64,000 bases of DNA from a virus: the UHGV virus genome UHGV-1351772; one strand, written 5' to 3'. Shown here in pieces: positions 11,368 to 41,645 of the stretch. Made by a program: the position numbers and the translations under genes. The notes beneath the pieces are model-generated. The model searched no databases. It was not told where the DNA came from and saw nothing but the letters and a program-made list of their open reading frames with translations. How positions within the stretch are numbered: the first letter of the stretch is position 1; each line of letters starts with the position of its first letter.

Positions 11368-11727
11368 TTAGTGCGTTGCGGTGTTAGTGATAAAACGCAC
11401 ATTCTTCGTGGTGCGTTTAATGGACGTGTTTGCAACGTAGTCCAACGCTGATTCTACGTGAACGGTTACTGAGCAACGACCCTTAACGGAATTAAAACTA
11501 ATCTGGTATTTCAGACGAATCGCATCAGCAACTTTCATCATAATCGGCAAACTTAAACGTTCTGAGTGATCGTTCTTAATAGACGAGATAACAGGTTGTG
11601 AAACTTTCGCAAGCTGGGCAAGTTCACGCTGAGTAATGTCTTTTGTGGTCAAATGACGAATTACGTAAGACAAGTGAAGACCGAATTTACGTTTTGCCAG
11701 AACGATGGAATTGTGATTGTAAGCCAT
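11368..11727 (-). CDS. helix-turn-helix DNA-binding protein (XRE-like)
   Basis: ITQRELAQLAKVSQPVISSI HTH-like segment; AAAGGAG RBS. Confidence 0.45.
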   Translation of the reverse strand: MAYNHNSIVLAKRKFGLHLSYVIRHLTTKDITQRELAQLAKVSQPVISSIKNDHSERLSLPIMMKVADAIRLKYQISFNSVKGRCSVTVHVESALDYVANTSIKRTTKNVRFITNTATH

Positions 11728-11776: not shown

Positions 11777-11803
11777 CTCTCACCTAAGTAAAATATATCT
11801 GAG
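11777..11803 (-). promoter_or_regulatory. conserved promoter-like motif, copy 2
   Basis: ctctcacctaagtaaaatatatctgag; upstream of HTH gene. Confidence 0.45.
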
Positions 11804-11818
11804 AAAAAATAAAATATA

Positions 11819-35672: not shown

Positions 35673-37235
35673 ATGAATAACAAAATGATGTTGATAACCG
35701 CCTTAGCCACATTATACGCTGAAAGTCTTCTGACCGATCCTGAAAAGGACCACGACATCATAAGAAAAGTGCTGTTAGAGGCTAAGCTTCCTGATTACGC
35801 AGAAGAAGGTGACGAACGTGCCGCCCTCGTCGAAATCAAGGATATCATCACATCCATCATAGACGGCGGTATGCCTTACGACCACACAAACGTCATGAAA
35901 CGTTTGAAACTGGCCACTACGCAAATACGTCCTCTATACGATACGATTACCAAATTCCTGGAAGATGATATTCCAGAAGAACCAGAAGCACGCATCGAGC
36001 ATCTTAATCGCCAAGTAGCACAATACTACTTTCAGTTACGTCAAGCTATTCAAGGCGTACAACTGAAACAAAAATTGGGTCGTACGTTAGGCGCACTGAA
36101 CGGCACTGAAACGCGTGTTGATTTACAAACGGCGCTCAACGACCTTAAGGATACCTTATCCACGTTCAGTGAACGCTCTCATAATAAGATTCCTTCTCTG
36201 GTAGGGGAATTGATTACTGATAATAAAGCACCTTTCGTGCATGTATTCGACTCTATCAGTAAGAAAGCGGCAGGGAACGGGTTGCGTACGGGGTGGAAAG
36301 CAATTAACCAAATGCTCGGTTGTAACAAAGGGATCACCGAAGAACTCTGGCTGATGCCTGCTCTTCCCTTTAACTGTAAATCATTATTCAGTTTATTGCT
36401 CTCTATTAGCATTCCTGTATTCAACACTCCAGAAAAGGTGATGGCGAATGTTAAAGGTGACCTACAACCGGTTATTCTGGATTTAAGTTTAGAAAACGAA
36501 TTGGATGTTAACTTGGCTTACGCGTATCAAGCACTTTACGGACACTTTGAAGGTACAGCTCCGGTAATGGTTGCACCTGAAACGGCAACTGACGAAGAAA
36601 AAGCGCTACACAATGCACAAATGTCAGATTACCTCTGTAGTAAAATGCGGGCAAACGGTTGGGAGTATATTTTCCAAAAACACACAAACTCCGATTTTAA
36701 AATTCACTATTTGAATGATTTGATTTTAGATTTAAAACGTCGAGGTTATCATGTAGCTGGAATACGCGGAGACTATTTCGGTACTATCAGCAAAGCAGGA
36801 CACGGTAACGGCATTGCGGGTAGTGACATTAAAGAAATTTATCGTATCGCGCGAAACATCCAAGTGGTACGTAATCGTGGTTTCCTCTTAGCACCACACC
36901 AAATCTCACCTGAAGGCAAAAAATTAAAAGCACTCGACCCAGCAAGTTTCTGTAAGAGCTTACCTGGTCGTGGTCTTTACGACAACTGCTCTAGCTTAGA
37001 CAACGAAGCTGACGGTGAGATGTATTTTAACAAACGTGTCGTCAGCGGACACAGCTATTTAGAAGTACAACGCGGTAAACACCGTACCATTATTGATACC
37101 AAAGAAGCTTATCATTATACTGTAATACCTTTCCGTGATGTTGGCATTTTGCCATGGGATTGTGATAAAGAAGAAACTGTAACAGCCTCGTCGATTAACG
37201 TATTTACCGGCGGCATGGGTGACGAACTCTTTTGA
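35673..37235 (+). CDS. hypothetical protein (520 aa)
   Basis: AAGGATG RBS; plus-strand island. Confidence 0.5.
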   Translation: MNNKMMLITALATLYAESLLTDPEKDHDIIRKVLLEAKLPDYAEEGDERAALVEIKDIITSIIDGGMPYDHTNVMKRLKLATTQIRPLYDTITKFLEDDIPEEPEARIEHLNRQVAQYYFQLRQAIQGVQLKQKLGRTLGALNGTETRVDLQTALNDLKDTLSTFSERSHNKIPSLVGELITDNKAPFVHVFDSISKKAAGNGLRTGWKAINQMLGCNKGITEELWLMPALPFNCKSLFSLLLSISIPVFNTPEKVMANVKGDLQPVILDLSLENELDVNLAYAYQALYGHFEGTAPVMVAPETATDEEKALHNAQMSDYLCSKMRANGWEYIFQKHTNSDFKIHYLNDLILDLKRRGYHVAGIRGDYFGTISKAGHGNGIAGSDIKEIYRIARNIQVVRNRGFLLAPHQISPEGKKLKALDPASFCKSLPGRGLYDNCSSLDNEADGEMYFNKRVVSGHSYLEVQRGKHRTIIDTKEAYHYTVIPFRDVGILPWDCDKEETVTASSINVFTGGMGDELF

Positions 37236-37239
37236 GTCT

Positions 37240-37257
37240 GGGGAGCTTCGGCTCCCC
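37240..37257 (+). terminator. hairpin with UUCG loop, weak terminator
   Basis: ggggagc ttcg gctcccc directly after stop of 35673..37235. Confidence 0.45.
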
Positions 37258-37340
37258 CTTATGACCCCTTATGCGTCTCGAAAAACAAAAAAAAACAGAA
37301 GGCTATTAATTATGAACGGGAAACAACTACTGAACTAAGT

Positions 37341-37363
37341 AGGGGGTGGTGACAACACCCCCT
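37341..37363. terminator. GC-rich hairpin (agggggtg...caccccct), terminal member of repeat series
   Basis: T-rich run follows on plus strand; same architecture as hairpin 3 of the two full units. Confidence 0.4.
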
Positions 37364-37378
37364 TTATTAGTTAGTAAC

Positions 37379-37540
37379 TTATCTCCTTACAGGTGGTTGG
37401 TGAACATTGTGGTTGTTAACCGTTTTCGGTGCCGCAACGAGGCCGAGACGAACATATTCGTCCATGCGTTGGTTAAACTGAATTTGTTTTTCACGATTTC
37501 GCATCGCGGTATTGGACATCTGTATTTGATATTCGTTCAT
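37379..37540 (-). CDS. small basic protein, paralog A (53 aa), not in ORF track
   Basis: Manual translation MNEYQIQMSNTAMRNREKQIQFNQRMDEYVRLGLVAAPKTVNNHNVHQPPVRR; AAAGG RBS-like. Confidence 0.35.
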   Translation of the reverse strand: MNEYQIQMSNTAMRNREKQIQFNQRMDEYVRLGLVAAPKTVNNHNVHQPPVRR

Positions 37541-37599
37541 TTTTCATTACCTTTCGTAATGTTGTAAAAACGTCAACAACTTTATGTGTTGACACCGTA

Positions 37600-37687
37600 C
37601 AGCAGAGACTGTTCCGCCAGTCTCTGCTGCTTTAACTTCTCTTTCGAAAAGTTAAAGCTATGAAAAGGGGTGCTTCACCACCCCTTT
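37600..37687. other. conserved three-hairpin structured element, copy 1 (candidate sRNA or intercistronic RNA structure)
   Basis: hairpin1 37600-37629, hairpin2 37629-37658, hairpin3 37664-37687 plus T-run. Confidence 0.4.
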
Positions 37688-37694
37688 ATTTTAT

Positions 37695-37865
37695 TTAGTA
37701 GTTACTTCTCCTTTCGGTGAAGATTTGTACTCGAGGATTATTAGAAGGTTTAAGCCTTTTATTTAATCCTAGCTGTTGAACTTCTCTTAATCGTTCATTA
37801 AACCTCGCTTGTTCTGCATAGCTGTTTGAGATAGAAGTAAAGATACGTGTATTGTTGTTAGTCAT
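37695..37865 (-). CDS. small basic protein, paralog B (56 aa), not in ORF track
   Basis: MTNNNTRIFTSISNSYAEQARFNERLREVQQLGLNKRLKPSNNPRVQIFTERRSNY; GTGAGG RBS 7 nt upstream. Confidence 0.35.
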   Translation of the reverse strand: MTNNNTRIFTSISNSYAEQARFNERLREVQQLGLNKRLKPSNNPRVQIFTERRSNY

Positions 37866-37921
37866 GTTAAAACCTCACACGAGTTGGGGATTAAGCTATT
37901 ACGCGGGTGTAATAGCAACAA

Positions 37922-38006
37922 GTAGGGACTGTACCGGCAGTCCCTACTGCTTTATCTTCTCTTTCGAAAAGATAAAGCGCCTATGGGGAGTGTTGGCGCA
38001 CTCCCC
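37922..38006. other. conserved three-hairpin structured element, copy 2
   Basis: hairpin1 37922-37947, hairpin2 37949-37978 (28/30 identical to copy 1, one compensatory pair), hairpin3 37985-38006. Confidence 0.4.
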
Positions 38007-38015
38007 TTTAGGTTG

Positions 38016-38168
38016 TTACCTCCTCTCAACTGCCAACTGGGTGTTTCTTGAATATGCAACTTTGGGCTGTGTTAACGTTGGTTGCGCTATTTCACTAACC
38101 CTTCGCTGAAACTCAAGTTGTTTTGTTGACAACTCGTTTAACCGTCGAAACAGCAGTTCATGTTTCAT
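38016..38168 (-). CDS. small basic protein, paralog C (50 aa), not in ORF track
   Basis: MKHELLFRRLNELSTKQLEFQRRVSEIAQPTLTQPKVAYSRNTQLAVERR; AGGTGA RBS-like. Confidence 0.35.
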   Translation of the reverse strand: MKHELLFRRLNELSTKQLEFQRRVSEIAQPTLTQPKVAYSRNTQLAVERR

Positions 38169-38212
38169 GAACTCATCACCTATGTCGATTTTGCGAAAAT
38201 AAATAAAGTGTA

Positions 38213-38238
38213 CCCCTAATCCTTTTCGGGATTAGGGG
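38213..38238. terminator. bidirectional rho-independent terminator
   Basis: cccctaatcc/ggattagggg stem with T-runs both sides. Confidence 0.6.
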
Positions 38239-38244
38239 TTGCTT

Positions 38245-39060
38245 TTATTTAGTCGCTACGTATTGAACATGGCCACATTCCTTACATTCCACGTTGGCTT
38301 TCGGGATTGTCAGGCCGGTTAAAGGAACACGTATTTGGTACTGTGCTCCACATTCTTCACAAACAAAATCGTGTTCTGGATAAACACGACCTTCTAATTT
38401 CTCTTCTTTCCTTAGTGTGCCTGCTAAGAACAGCATCGCACCTAACGCTTCATTAATCTGCTGTTCCCATTCTCCGTCTAACGGGTAAGCGAACGCACGA
38501 GTCAACGTTTCCACCATCTCTGGAGTATTACTTACATAAACGTGTTTCAGTTCAAACTCAACACGCTGTAAGCCAAACAATACGCGTGCTGTTACAGTAA
38601 CATTATCCAACGTTTGTGCAAATACAACGGGATTATCGTCGCCGTACATCGCGAATAACGCAGCACGTTCGTATTCGATATCACTCCACTCGATTAGTTC
38701 TACAGATTTAATCTCTTCCGCAATCGTAGCATTACCGAACGTTTCATGTTCCAATAATCCGACGATAACTTCATTCAACGATTTCAATTGCTGTAAACGA
38801 ATCACAGGATCGGTGTTCACGATAAGCAAACGATGCATTCTGGATTTCAACCAATTAATCGTTCCTTCTACACCGCCCCCAAACGAGCAGATGCTTATCA
38901 CTTCAGGTTCGCGAAGGATAAGAGTGGATTTTCCTGCTGCCGTACTCAAGTAGAGTTTAAAAGACTTATCGCTGGACTCTGCAACGATGGCAATGTCTTC
39001 AGTTGGAACAAAGTTTTCATTGCTCAGTCCACGCGGAAAATAATCTTTAATGGTAATCAT
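38245..39060 (-). CDS. hypothetical protein with C-terminal zinc-ribbon (CxxC...CxxC)
   Basis: FVCEECGAQ...VECKECGHV. Confidence 0.45.
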   Translation of the reverse strand: MITIKDYFPRGLSNENFVPTEDIAIVAESSDKSFKLYLSTAAGKSTLILREPEVISICSFGGGVEGTINWLKSRMHRLLIVNTDPVIRLQQLKSLNEVIVGLLEHETFGNATIAEEIKSVELIEWSDIEYERAALFAMYGDDNPVVFAQTLDNVTVTARVLFGLQRVEFELKHVYVSNTPEMVETLTRAFAYPLDGEWEQQINEALGAMLFLAGTLRKEEKLEGRVYPEHDFVCEECGAQYQIRVPLTGLTIPKANVECKECGHVQYVATK

Positions 39061-39090
39061 CTTTTATGCTCCAATTAATAAAAAATTAAG

Positions 39091-39106
39091 GGCACCCGAA
39101 GGTGCC
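39091..39106 (-). terminator. rho-independent terminator
   Basis: ggcacc cgaa ggtgcc after A-run. Confidence 0.6.
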
Positions 39107-39113
39107 TTATACA

Positions 39114-39257
39114 TTAACCACGACCAGTGCACTGTGCAACGGAGTTACCGTTGTCGATGCAAGTGTCGTAGCCTTTGTCGATGTCCAGATACAGGCAACC
39201 CAGAACAACAGCGATAACAACAGCGAAAATAGCTTTTTTGTGTTTTACAGAAATCAT
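39114..39257 (-). CDS. small lipoprotein-like peptide (47 aa), not in ORF track
   Basis: MISVKHKKAIFAVVIAVVLGCLYLDIDKGYDTCIDNGNSVAQCTGRG; AGGAG RBS 8 nt upstream; host-like codon bias. Confidence 0.4.
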   Translation of the reverse strand: MISVKHKKAIFAVVIAVVLGCLYLDIDKGYDTCIDNGNSVAQCTGRG

Positions 39258-39302
39258 GATATAACTCCTAATTAGGTATTCGATAAATGAGTATTACGTA
39301 AA

Positions 39303-39328
39303 CTCTCACCTAGGTAATATATATCTGA
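39303..39328 (-). promoter_or_regulatory. conserved promoter-like motif, copy 3
   Basis: ctctcacctaggtaatatatatctga upstream of lipoprotein-like gene. Confidence 0.45.
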
Positions 39329-39460
39329 AATCTTTTTGAATCCATATACCCTCTAGAACGCTCTAAAACGCATTCTGACGCAATTTTCTTTTTAAAGGGT
39401 AATTAGTCGTCTTAGCGGTTAAATGACTTCTGCGTGTCGTTTAGGAATAAATAAAAGGTA

Positions 39461-39488
39461 TTCCCGTTACCCATAGAGGTAACGGGAA
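39461..39488 (-). terminator. rho-independent terminator
   Basis: ttcccgttacc/ggtaacgggaa stem, A-run upstream on plus. Confidence 0.6.
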
Positions 39489-39492
39489 GTTT

Positions 39493-40299
39493 TTACAGAC
39501 CTTGCATCTTATCCATTACAGCGATTTCAGGATCGTTAATGCCCGTCTTCGAAGAAATCATAAAGCGCTTATCGCTAATAGCTTCTACAGATTCGCGAAT
39601 AAACAATGACTTTTCTTCCGCAACAGGGAGAATAGAATCGTTATCCTGCGGACCCACAAGCTGACAACTGAATGGCACATAGCTGTTGAAAGTCACATAA
39701 GGACCTAACTGCAAGACCGGATACACTTCATTAAAGTTATTTGATGTACCGCTGTCTGTAGAAATAACAGAATAGCGCACCACCGCACGAACCGCTGTTG
39801 TGTATTCAGGATCGCGGGCTTCACCCACCACGGTAAAACGAAACGCATTGAAGTCGTAGTCTTCCGACTCACTAAAGTGTGAAGGGAGAATACGTTCAAT
39901 ATACTGAGGATAGGTTTCTTGTTGCCCTGGAATAACCGCTGCAGCTAATTTCTGAGCATAGAAGTAACAATAAGCAAAGCCGTATTGCGCTTCTAAAGCA
40001 CCAGACACCACGGCAGTTGTGATCGCGTGCAGGAACAACAAATGGCCTAACGTCCCTTTTTCTTCGATTGGTAATAAGCGACAATTCTGTACACCGTCTA
40101 CGGTATAAATAACAGAAATCGTTTTGTCAGCACTGGACGCCATGATGTAGTCCAACTGGCGTTGTTCGCCACCAGGAATAACATTAAGGCAACGTTCTAA
40201 CAACTTCGACGGTTTCGAAAAATTCTCTTCTTCGAACTTGTCGATTTGAATTAACGTTTGGCCAGACATTCTGAAAGTAAGTAGATTACTCATTAACAA
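39493..40299 (-). CDS. hypothetical protein
   Basis: ORF track. Confidence 0.45.
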   Translation of the reverse strand: MLMSNLLTFRMSGQTLIQIDKFEEENFSKPSKLLERCLNVIPGGEQRQLDYIMASSADKTISVIYTVDGVQNCRLLPIEEKGTLGHLLFLHAITTAVVSGALEAQYGFAYCYFYAQKLAAAVIPGQQETYPQYIERILPSHFSESEDYDFNAFRFTVVGEARDPEYTTAVRAVVRYSVISTDSGTSNNFNEVYPVLQLGPYVTFNSYVPFSCQLVGPQDNDSILPVAEEKSLFIRESVEAISDKRFMISSKTGINDPEIAVMDKMQGL

Positions 40300-40325
40300 A
40301 TCCTTTAGGTTACGGACGACATAAT

Positions 40326-41645
40326 TTACGTAGCGGTTGTAAATTTTTCATTAGTCAACCACAACGTCAATTGACTAATGGTATTAAATTGTGGGGACGC
40401 CATCGAACCACCGTCAACGGCAGCTTGGAAAACTTCACCAACCAACGTCCCATAACGAGTGTATACACCGTAATTATTCGCATACAGATATTTTACTGCC
40501 ATACCCGGCTGCAATAAACCGTACGCTGAACGGTTCCAGGTCGTTGCGGTCAGTGTCCCTCTGGCGGCAGCCAACTTAGAACGACGAGGCTTATCTGTGT
40601 CGCTGAAGTGCTCATTTGGATCAATAGGCGCATTAACAACACCACCGGGGTACTGTGTAGGGTCTGCTGCCGAAACAAACGAATCTGACGTCGTTGCTGA
40701 AACGTCGCCTGGAGAGAAAGAACTTGCACGACCATCTAAGGCACGGATTGAACCCACGCGGTAACCCGTTCCCTGGTTTAACGCAAGAGCGTCTTTGTCT
40801 TCGAAGGTGTGAACATCACCACCACAAATCAGATAAATGACGTCACCTGCAATGTGACACGTTTTATCTAAATAGGCAACTTTCTCTCTTGGAAGGTTAA
40901 TTACCACCAGTTTCTTTTTTGCCGTAGAGAATTTCTTAGAATCCCACGGTTGAAAGATATGCCAACGGTGTTTATACAAAAAGACACCTAATCCTTGGCT
41001 ATACACACCGTAGCGGTTTTGAATGAAATCGAAAACCGAAAGAAAACTTTGCGAATCGGGAATCAAAATGTCGCGATAAGGCTGTTGTTCTTCTTCCTCG
41101 TATTCCACACCAACCAACTGACCTTCTGGTGCATCCCCAGTAGGTAACGTATCAGCAAGTAATGCACGAACGACACTTAATCCGTCGGTTTCGTGATAAA
41201 TCCCTCCTACCTGACGGCAACGAAGGAACCACATCGATTCGTCCATCAACTCCAACGTCACCACACCCAACCCTTTTTGGTCAGATTCACCCAAGAACAT
41301 CGTGGGCGATTCCATATCAGGATCGTGATTGTTAACTACGATTCCTCGGTAGTTCAGTTGCGCAATGGTTTTCTTGTTCATTGTCCGCATCAGGATTTTA
41401 ACTGATAAATCCCCTTCTGCCGACGACGTAAGAATACGTTGCTGGCTCAGTGGAATCACCACACTGAGGTGCGTGATGGTCGTTAAATCCTGAGCGAAAT
41501 TACTGGCATGGATTATCGACATGGTTTTGTAAACGTCAATCGTCACCCCACGAACCGTGATAAGGGGTACGTAGTCGATGGCCGGTAATCCCGCCGCTTG
41601 TGCAATGTGCACGTTTGCTATGTTCTGTAACCGACCAAACGACAT
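40326..41645 (-). CDS. hypothetical protein (439 aa)
   Basis: ORF track. Confidence 0.5.
   Translation of the reverse strand: MSFGRLQNIANVHIAQAAGLPAIDYVPLITVRGVTIDVYKTMSIIHASNFAQDLTTITHLSVVIPLSQQRILTSSAEGDLSVKILMRTMNKKTIAQLNYRGIVVNNHDPDMESPTMFLGESDQKGLGVVTLELMDESMWFLRCRQVGGIYHETDGLSVVRALLADTLPTGDAPEGQLVGVEYEEEEQQPYRDILIPDSQSFLSVFDFIQNRYGVYSQGLGVFLYKHRWHIFQPWDSKKFSTAKKKLVVINLPREKVAYLDKTCHIAGDVIYLICGGDVHTFEDKDALALNQGTGYRVGSIRALDGRASSFSPGDVSATTSDSFVSAADPTQYPGGVVNAPIDPNEHFSDTDKPRRSKLAAARGTLTATTWNRSAYGLLQPGMAVKYLYANNYGVYTRYGTLVGEVFQAAVDGGSMASPQFNTISQLTLWLTNEKFTTAT

Follow-up and report, generated by a model that had tools for sequence, protein, structure and literature searches.

A conserved, probably early 47-codon gene of an SPN3US-like jumbo phage and its predicted inner-membrane microprotein

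Introduction

The Sp and Imm proteins of phage T4 are small early phage inner-membrane proteins whose periplasm-facing part acts on incoming phage. The Hok/Gef type I toxins, at ~50 amino acids (aa), have an N-terminal transmembrane (TM) helix and a short, Cys-containing periplasmic C terminus; Rz1-type spanins and Cor/Llp lipoproteins are also small and combine a basic and hydrophobic N terminus with Cys in the exported part. In this work, we compare these proteins with the product of a 47-codon open reading frame (ORF) on the minus strand of UHGV virus genome UHGV-1351772, a viral DNA of 64,000 nucleotides (nt); this whole stretch is the window referred to below. A first-pass annotation made from the sequence alone had described the ORF as an independently transcribed, lipoprotein-like gene. 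We find a genuine gene that appears to be the positional ortholog of gp66 of the jumbo phage SPN3US (SPN3US_0066, AEP83899.1; annotated as a 47-aa "hypothetical protein") and that lies behind a predicted phage early promoter. We favor, with reservations, the view that it encodes an early inner-membrane microprotein with the N terminus inside and the C terminus outside (N-in/C-out), a periplasmic disulfide loop, and a role at the level of the envelope.

Very little is known about the dealings of nucleus-forming jumbo phages with the envelope after injection, be it the exclusion of competitors, early vesicle biology, or lysis, and no exclusion factor that is a membrane protein is named in two recent reviews on nucleus-forming and jumbo phages. 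Nothing on SPN3US gp66 was found in the literature, and no transcript data for SPN3US-group phages were found in its searchable part.

Results

The ORF is a conserved gene of SPN3US-like phages

DNA and tblastn searches place the window among SPN3US (Seoulvirus)/Erwinia Machinavirus-type jumbo phages, and its source can be assigned to the SPN3US-like, nucleus-forming, phiKZ-like jumbo phages (chimalliviruses). There is no close relative at the DNA level among GenBank phages, whose matches are limited to the promoter region of ~100 nt; the ORF recurs unchanged on 220- to 225-kb uncultivated-virus and metagenome contigs, and the phage is represented in such collections only. In the public assembly collection, 2,399 indexed blocks contain exactly this product, gene-called at 47 aa; NCBI assembly GCA_042601545.1 is included. 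Thus, the source appears to be a widespread, uncultivated SPN3US-like phage.

The 47-codon ORF of the first-pass annotation is present, as is its AGGAG ribosome binding site, which lies at 39269..39265 and is spaced 7 nt from the ATG; every ortholog retains an AGGA- or GGAG-like Shine-Dalgarno (SD) sequence ahead of its start codon. Homologues are present in 61 phage records and in 32 protein clusters, the latter reached by an alignment-based search; a single-sequence protein search reached one cluster only. Four near-identical genomes differ from the window in this ORF at synonymous positions only (proportion of synonymous differences [pS], 0.06 to 0.16; of nonsynonymous differences [pN], 0). 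The ratio of nonsynonymous to synonymous substitution rates (dN/dS) is 0.03 to 0.07 between close lineages and 0.1 to 0.4 between distant ones, and the ORF is under purifying selection. Scored against the long ORFs of the same phage, its codon adaptation is 0.858, which ranks with the highest values among the phage's genes (reference genes average 0.752 ± 0.043); the remaining five frames score 0.55 to 0.71, and 2,000 synonymous shuffles never attained 0.858. A chance or antisense ORF is ruled out by the dN/dS values and the frame-specific codon adaptation; we conclude that the ORF is a genuine, conserved protein-coding gene.

The gene was first presented as one that the ORF track had missed. 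Its orthologs, however, are annotated coding sequences (CDSs) in GenBank relatives, and the identical product is already gene-called in public assemblies, so its absence from the track is a length-threshold effect. The gene is already catalogued, as SPN3US gp66 and as PHROG 8574, rather than overlooked. The match to PHROG 8574, a family of unknown function, has an E value of 3.4e-23 and joins residues 1 to 47 to positions 1 to 47 of the 47-position profile; all seven aligned orthologs match the same family.

Gene order in the window parallels SPN3US gp62/63-gp64-gp65-gp66...gp70-gp71/72-gp73. It runs from a head-tail joining protein through a 179-aa protein, a 439-aa protein (gp64-like, "virion structural protein 7"), and a 266/268-aa protein (gp65-like) to the 47-aa gene, followed by the 271-aa gp70-like gene, several ~50-aa genes, and, on the other strand, a DnaB-like helicase. 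SPN3US gp66 and its annotated orthologs (among them ChrisDB gp82, Huxley gp81, Caitlin gp76, and Kwan gp81, with further ones in SPAsTU and pEa_SNUABM_4) share with the window gene a length of 45 to 48 aa at 43 to 56% identity, a location that follows the gp64 (virion structural) and gp65 orthologs and precedes the gp70 ortholog and helicase, an upstream early promoter, and a C-x9-CTGRG end. The window protein differs in having Cys at position 21, where SPN3US gp66 has Val, and an acidic juxtamembrane DIDKG.

The hosts of the phages that carry the family include Salmonella, Escherichia, Erwinia, and Proteus. When 1.84 billion representative proteins were searched with the family profile, 11 matches were returned; the seven at E ≤ 1e-10 are all 45 to 51 aa long, and the family is therefore confined to the SPN3US-like phage group. 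The same search revealed no larger superfamily, and one match to a low-complexity, eukaryote-like repeat protein (P0034) was judged spurious.

Predicted topology and an invariant C-terminal loop

The earlier reading of the product as directed to the envelope, an exported or membrane peptide, stands. We counted topology, lipobox, and position 21 features in a family set of 37 distinct sequences. The N-terminal flank carries a net charge of +2 to +4 and the C-terminal tail −2 to +2, with the N-terminal value higher in all 37; since the positive-inside rule thus holds throughout, the N terminus is predicted to be cytoplasmic and the C-terminal ~21 to 23 residues periplasmic. The apolar run spans 13 to 22 residues (median, 18) across the family. 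An AlphaFold2 (AF2) model built from the family alignment has a continuous helix at residues 4 to 35 and a short helix at 40 to 44, with a mean pLDDT of 86.

In the tail, C33, G37, S39, C43, T44, G45, and R46 are invariant in 32 sequences and the remaining positions vary. The C terminus, C-x9-C-T-G-R-[GS], is invariant, and the window protein conforms to it; the two further Cys residues reported in its distal part are these, Cys33 and Cys43. Two invariant Cys residues at a fixed spacing in an extracytoplasmic tail suggest a disulfide that would close the loop C-x-DNGNSVA-x-C.

A similar arrangement was seen in P0033, another match of the profile search, which is an unrelated, non-phage-like protein of 381 aa with hydrophobic N-terminal segments. 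Its C-terminal part carries four tandem AYN-x-CIGNG-x-S-x-x-QC units, more generally Y-N-x-C-I-x-N-G-x-S-x-x-Q-C, and the protein gives a sub-threshold Pfam match to plant thionin. The resemblance of these repeats to the family loop would fit a loop that is a small disulfide motif in its own right.

A predicted phage early promoter precedes the gene

A promoter-like motif had been noted at 39303-39328. The motif is real and lies inside a conserved 35-nt element, but it is not of the host type: a sigma-70 consensus scan returned no site at 39303-39340, and with this empty scan a host-type sigma-70 promoter is ruled out in favor of a phage early promoter. A 31-nt version of the element had no chance match in 100 shuffles. 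The exact 17-mer TTTCAGATATATATTAC at 39330..39314 is shared unchanged by SPN3US, ChrisDB, SPAsTU, Caitlin, and others. It occurs with zero to one mismatch on the coding strand of the window and of each of the 17 related loci, 56 to 1,326 nt upstream of the gp66 ortholog and separated from it by zero to three co-oriented ORFs. Because the 17-mer is upstream in all 17 related loci, the gene appears to belong to an early unit in every lineage.

The promoter class can be traced to phiKZ. About 10 nt long, an AT-rich motif centered near −10 marks the virion RNA polymerase (vRNAP) early promoters of every jumbo phage that encodes its own RNA polymerase (RNAP) (PMC7598289, PMC11512511), and in phiKZ, the early motif combines an extended, AT-rich −10 with an upstream part rich in T (PMC8244752). 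By differential RNA sequencing (dRNA-seq) of phiKZ, PHIKZ054 has the early-gene promoter motif at its primary transcription start site (TSS) (PMC8244752). The exact early-promoter sequence was not found in the open literature text, and the promoter was identified from the phiKZ DNA that precedes gp54 and gp68. The promoter core lies directly upstream of phiKZ gp54, gp58.1, and gp68, the last being a gene for a subunit of the non-virion RNAP (nvRNAP), with 2, 1, and 2 mismatches, respectively. Like the window's, the phiKZ early promoters have the core TTT(C/G)AGAT(A/T)TATATTAC with an A-run upstream and are intergenic, tens of nt before the start codon; SPN3US-group promoters also conserve a downstream CTAGGTGAGAG, which those of phiKZ lack. 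A 40-nt version of the element occurs at 408 places in 105 phage records, all phiKZ-like and including EL, 201phi2-1, OBP, Goslar, PCH45, and CR5. These places are mostly in unannotated DNA, and each SPN3US-like genome has four to seven copies. We therefore read 39337..39303 as a probable chimallivirus early (vRNAP) promoter, with the motif …TTTCAGAT-TATATTAC on the coding strand. Judging from the literature (PMC7598289), the TSS would lie a few nt downstream of TATATTAC, at ~39305-39310.

The surrounding intergenic layout is conserved across genera: the gp65-ortholog terminator is followed by a GC-containing block with GCGTT repeats, the near-invariant ATTTCAGATATATATTACCTAGGTGAGAG, a leader of ~45 to 55 nt, the SD sequence, and the ATG. 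A hairpin equivalent to that after the window's gp65-like gene follows the gp65 ortholog in seven of seven aligned relatives, and the one in the window forms the 5' boundary of the 47-aa gene's transcription unit. The GC-containing block is conserved in seven lineages and the flanking intergenic DNA is not; the block could be a second (middle or late) promoter, a leader, or an operator.

Two side observations concern these elements. SPAsTU and pEa_SNUABM_4 have a ~134-aa gene, annotated in SPAsTU as "putative DNA ligase," exactly between the GC-containing block and the promoter, and the AGAGGG of the block is the SD sequence of that gene. A second copy of the early promoter, ATATTTTACTTAGGTGAGAG, is at 11777-11804 (minus strand) with two mismatches, immediately behind a hairpin terminator, and the gene for a 119-aa helix-turn-helix DNA-binding protein (11368..11727) lies ~50 nt further downstream; the 64-kb window holds two copies of the element only.

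Terminator and transcription unit

The terminator of the first-pass annotation is present as GGCACC-TTCG-GGTGCC at 39106..39091, followed by CTTAATTTTTTATT. The hairpin has a minimum free energy (MFE) of −11.6 kcal/mol, with a z-score of only −1.35 in its 51-nt context; it is identical in nine of nine same-species genomes, and the spacer beyond it varies. A terminator of the same design, with a GGTAGCC/GGCTACC stem and an unchanged UUCG loop, is present in Huxley, in which the ortholog also stands directly before the gp70-like gene. With an early promoter directly before it and a hairpin terminator after it, the gene is predicted to form a monocistronic unit of ~200 nt in the window lineage. 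The claim that the gene is independently transcribed therefore holds as far as its own promoter and terminator go; partial read-through into the 271-aa gene may occur, since no other recognizable promoter precedes that gene. SPN3US gp66, in contrast, overlaps gp67 (TAATG) in an operon. The stop codon overlaps the next start (TAATG or TAAGATG) in the SPN3US, SPAsTU, ChrisDB, Caitlin, and Asesino-like loci, where the gene belongs to a polycistronic early operon. Outside the window lineage, the gene is found one to three genes into such an operon, behind a promoter of the type seen in the window. The features of the window locus are collected in Table 1.

Terminator-like hairpins are enriched in 37000-41000 (21, versus 3.8 ± 2.2 expected from shuffles), and several score on both strands. 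An Rfam scan of 37000-40500 found no credible RNA family.

Table 1. Features of the 47-codon gene and its surroundings in the window
Feature	Position	Strand	Description
Hairpin terminator of the gp65-like gene (268 aa, 39493..40299)	39461..39488	−	12-bp stem with 6 GC pairs; T-run
GC-containing block	39344..39387	−	~44 nt; three ~10-nt "AGA-GCGTT"-like repeats; directly upstream of the promoter
Early (virion RNA polymerase) promoter, predicted	39303..39337	−	AAAAAGA-TTTCAGATATATATTAC-CTAGGTGAGAG; full 35-nt element AAAAAGATTTCAGATATATATTACCTAGGTGAGAG
5' leader	39258..39302	−	Carries the Shine-Dalgarno AGGAG; read off the sequence
CDS of the 47-aa gene	39114..39257	−	47 codons + TAA; product MISVKHKKAIFAVVIAVVLGCLYLDIDKGYDTCIDNGNSVAQCTGRG
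Protein residues 1-8			Basic, KHKK
Protein residues 9-24			Predicted apolar helix; Cys21 codon, 39197..39195 (−)
Protein residues 25-47			Tail; Cys33, 39161..39159; Cys43, 39131..39129; terminal CTGRG
Intrinsic terminator or attenuator, predicted	39077..39106	−	GGCACC-UUCG-GGUGCC + CUUAAUUUUUUAUU; between the 47-aa and 271-aa genes

Discussion

Lipidation and other alternatives

Several points weigh against an N-in/C-out membrane protein with a disulfide-closed loop. The apolar run of the window protein is only 16 residues long. Counted from position 21, 28 of 36 members have a small residue at −1 and an allowed one at −3, which resembles a signal peptidase I or II site; VLGC itself passes a permissive PS51257-style rule, and UniRef names the family member Kwan gp81 "Lipoprotein." A C33-C43 disulfide made by DsbA and the early timing of the gene are both steps that we infer, the latter from the promoter class. 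Furthermore, Pfam, NCBIfam, and PDB sequence searches gave no matches beyond non-significant ones, and no homologue in the gp66 family has a known function.

One alternative, along the lines of the first-pass annotation, is that the product in this phage and in the other Cys-bearing lineages is a lipoprotein with a type II signal peptide of 20 residues, which Lgt and LspA would lipidate and cleave at Cys21. A mature part of 27 residues with Leu at +2 would then pass through Lol sorting and, as an outer membrane lipopeptide, block a receptor or exclude superinfecting phage in some other way. The window sequence itself invites this comparison with Rz1, Cor, and Llp: a basic n-region and a 12-residue h-region are followed by V-L-G-C with Cys at position 21, and early expression would suit an exclusion factor. 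Across the family, the PS51257-style pattern is found in 16 of the 37 members, which are 16 of the 18 that carry the Cys, and 17 of these 18 have A or G at −1. The label of Kwan gp81 probably arose because it, too, has this permissive pattern. The lipobox VLGC proposed by the first-pass annotation thus survives under the permissive rule only. The strict lipobox, [LVI][ASTVI][GAS]C, is absent from all 37 members, because Leu is at −2 rather than −3; Leu occupies −3 in only 1 of the 18. Nor is the Cys conserved: position 21 is V, S, A, T, I, L, or W in 19 otherwise-conserved members, including the best-studied one, that of SPN3US (AFAV), and Huxley (AFGS). On a neighbor-joining tree built without that column, which for such short sequences is indicative only, the state at position 21 changes at least six times, and repeated switching from a lipid anchor in the outer membrane to another location and back is hard to square with one function and an invariant 15-residue loop. 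Hydrophobic residues run on for three to five positions past position 21 in all members, with or without Cys, and the protein has no match among known families of lipoproteins, of Cor/Llp (in Pfam, PHROG, and NCBIfam alike), or of entericidins. We consider the lipoprotein unlikely, although it keeps an appreciable share of our belief, and doubt likewise that the Cys-bearing members, including the window protein, are lipidated. In our reading, Cys21 would be a tolerated membrane-embedded residue and lipidation not a property of the family. For annotation, the case cautions that permissive lipobox rules and the UniRef label over-call lipoproteins among single-pass microproteins.

The −3/−1 pattern of small residues (A-x-A, A-x-G, V-L-G), which extends to members without the Cys such as SPN3US (AFA|V) and Huxley (AFG|S), would also suit a cleavable Sec signal peptide, cut by signal peptidase I after residue 20 to release a soluble, disulfide-bonded periplasmic peptide of ~27 residues with a target in the periplasm. 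We regard this as quite improbable. The rule is broken in 8 of 36 members (e.g., LVT|V, LLV|S, LAI|V), a helix-breaking c-region is lacking, and hydrophobic residues follow the putative site (LSITV, LYLSV, GMMTV), with V, W, I, or L at +1 being unusual; the median 18-residue apolar run is typical of signal anchors, and the AF2 helix continues uninterrupted through the site. The same topology could instead serve a Hok/TisB-like membrane-active peptide or a modulator of the host inner membrane (energy, division, or secretion) in early take-over, an option that we hold to be improbable. Early expression would fit, as would the protein's standing as the only membrane protein in a variable island of early accessory genes, and a small N-in/C-out peptide with periplasmic cysteines has the architecture of Hok/Gef. 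The gp66 family differs from Hok/Gef, however, in its strictly conserved polar loop, its nature as a phage early gene, its normal SD sequence, and the lack of antisense-RNA control, and its sequences resemble neither Hok/Gef nor any other toxin family. Kinship with Hok-like or entericidin-like proteins is not supported, as neither Hok_Gef nor entericidin is among the Pfam matches with the E cutoff raised to 10. A polar loop of 15 invariant residues is rare in pore-forming peptides; the loop therefore argues for a specific binding partner and against a pore-forming peptide. A lysis protein, whether an Rz1-like outer-membrane spanin as suggested in the first-pass annotation, a unimolecular spanin, or a small holin or antiholin, is very improbable. 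Its size and Cys content are like those of o-spanins, and PHROG searches gave weak matches to an Rz-like spanin (best E, 0.042; four of seven members) and a holin (E, 0.055; one member), but these are non-significant and confined to the hydrophobic segment, and the spanin is a TM-anchored i-spanin family. The spanin idea fails on the early-class promoter found in every lineage and on the lack of an i-spanin partner: the neighbors, a soluble 268-aa gp65-like and a 271-aa gp70-like protein, have no N-terminal TM segment with a coiled coil, and the locus has no embedded or overlapping frame for a TM protein. There is no lysis cassette and no endolysin or holin nearby; the surrounding genes are virion-structural, hypothetical, and helicase genes. 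Prolines are absent from the tail, and the C-terminal 23 residues are polar, with no second hydrophobic segment or C-terminal TM segment.

A candidate early envelope protein

We thus return to the N-in/C-out inner-membrane microprotein, which we think somewhat likelier to be right than wrong as a whole. In this scenario, the virion-packaged phage RNA polymerase would transcribe the gene within minutes of DNA injection, and the product would insert into the inner membrane through its single apolar helix of ~16 to 19 residues, leaving the basic N terminus in the cytoplasm and the C-terminal tail in the periplasm. There, the C33-C43 disulfide would close the loop, followed by the TGRG end, and the loop would serve as the functional surface, binding a conserved component of the envelope or a component of incoming related phages. 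Early expression, an invariant periplasm-facing loop, and conservation across host genera together suggest an early envelope-level role with a specific partner. The most likely role would be of the kind of superinfection exclusion or a block of secondary injection, analogous to T4 Sp; exclusion as by Sp is plausible as the most economical guess. The likeness to Sp and Imm is a functional analogy only: the T4 proteins are about twice as long, and the window protein has no similarity to any such Pfam or PHROG family. Compared with Rz1, Cor, and Llp, the gp66 family lacks a conserved lipobox Cys and any homology.

The genes between the gp65 and gp70 orthologs vary by lineage and encode small soluble proteins, whereas the 47-aa gene is constant. 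It is the only membrane protein gene there, save that for an 81-aa two-TM protein in Asesino-like phages. The latter protein, with two hydrophobic segments, is encoded directly upstream of the ortholog in these Erwinia phages (L013, 3705-3950; L016, 3675-3920) and has no counterpart beside the 47-aa gene in the window. A more specific proposal, which we put forward as unlikely to hold in full, is that gp66/PHROG 8574 is a dedicated early envelope factor of enterobacterial nucleus-forming jumbo phages, whose disulfide-closed loop binds the ejection or penetration machinery of related incoming phages or else a conserved protein of the host envelope. If this were true, the gp66 family would be the first identified superinfection-exclusion or envelope-remodeling factor for chimalliviruses. 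As the constant membrane protein, with an unusually invariant loop, in a variable early accessory-gene island of the SPN3US/Erwinia group, it is a cheap and well-defined candidate for functional tests, with a 47-aa construct and SPN3US as a genetic model.

Neighboring genes downstream

The 271-aa gp70-like gene is at 39060..38245 on the minus strand, and its product ends in two CxxC pairs (CEECG...CKECG) that resemble a zinc ribbon. This tail is common to the 271-aa protein and SPN3US gp70; the counterparts in Erwinia phages, ChrisDB gp84 and Huxley gp82, end in an acidic tail instead. The protein weakly matches PHROG 10180, of unknown function. Beyond it, at 37379-38168 on the same strand, are three tandem ORFs of 53, 56, and 50 aa, which are related to one another and to SPN3US gp71/gp72 (Q-F-N-Q-R-V core) and are separated by long, perfect bidirectional hairpins with 11- to 12-bp stems. 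Otherwise near-identical genomes have from one to four such small genes in the interval from the 271-aa gene to the helicase.

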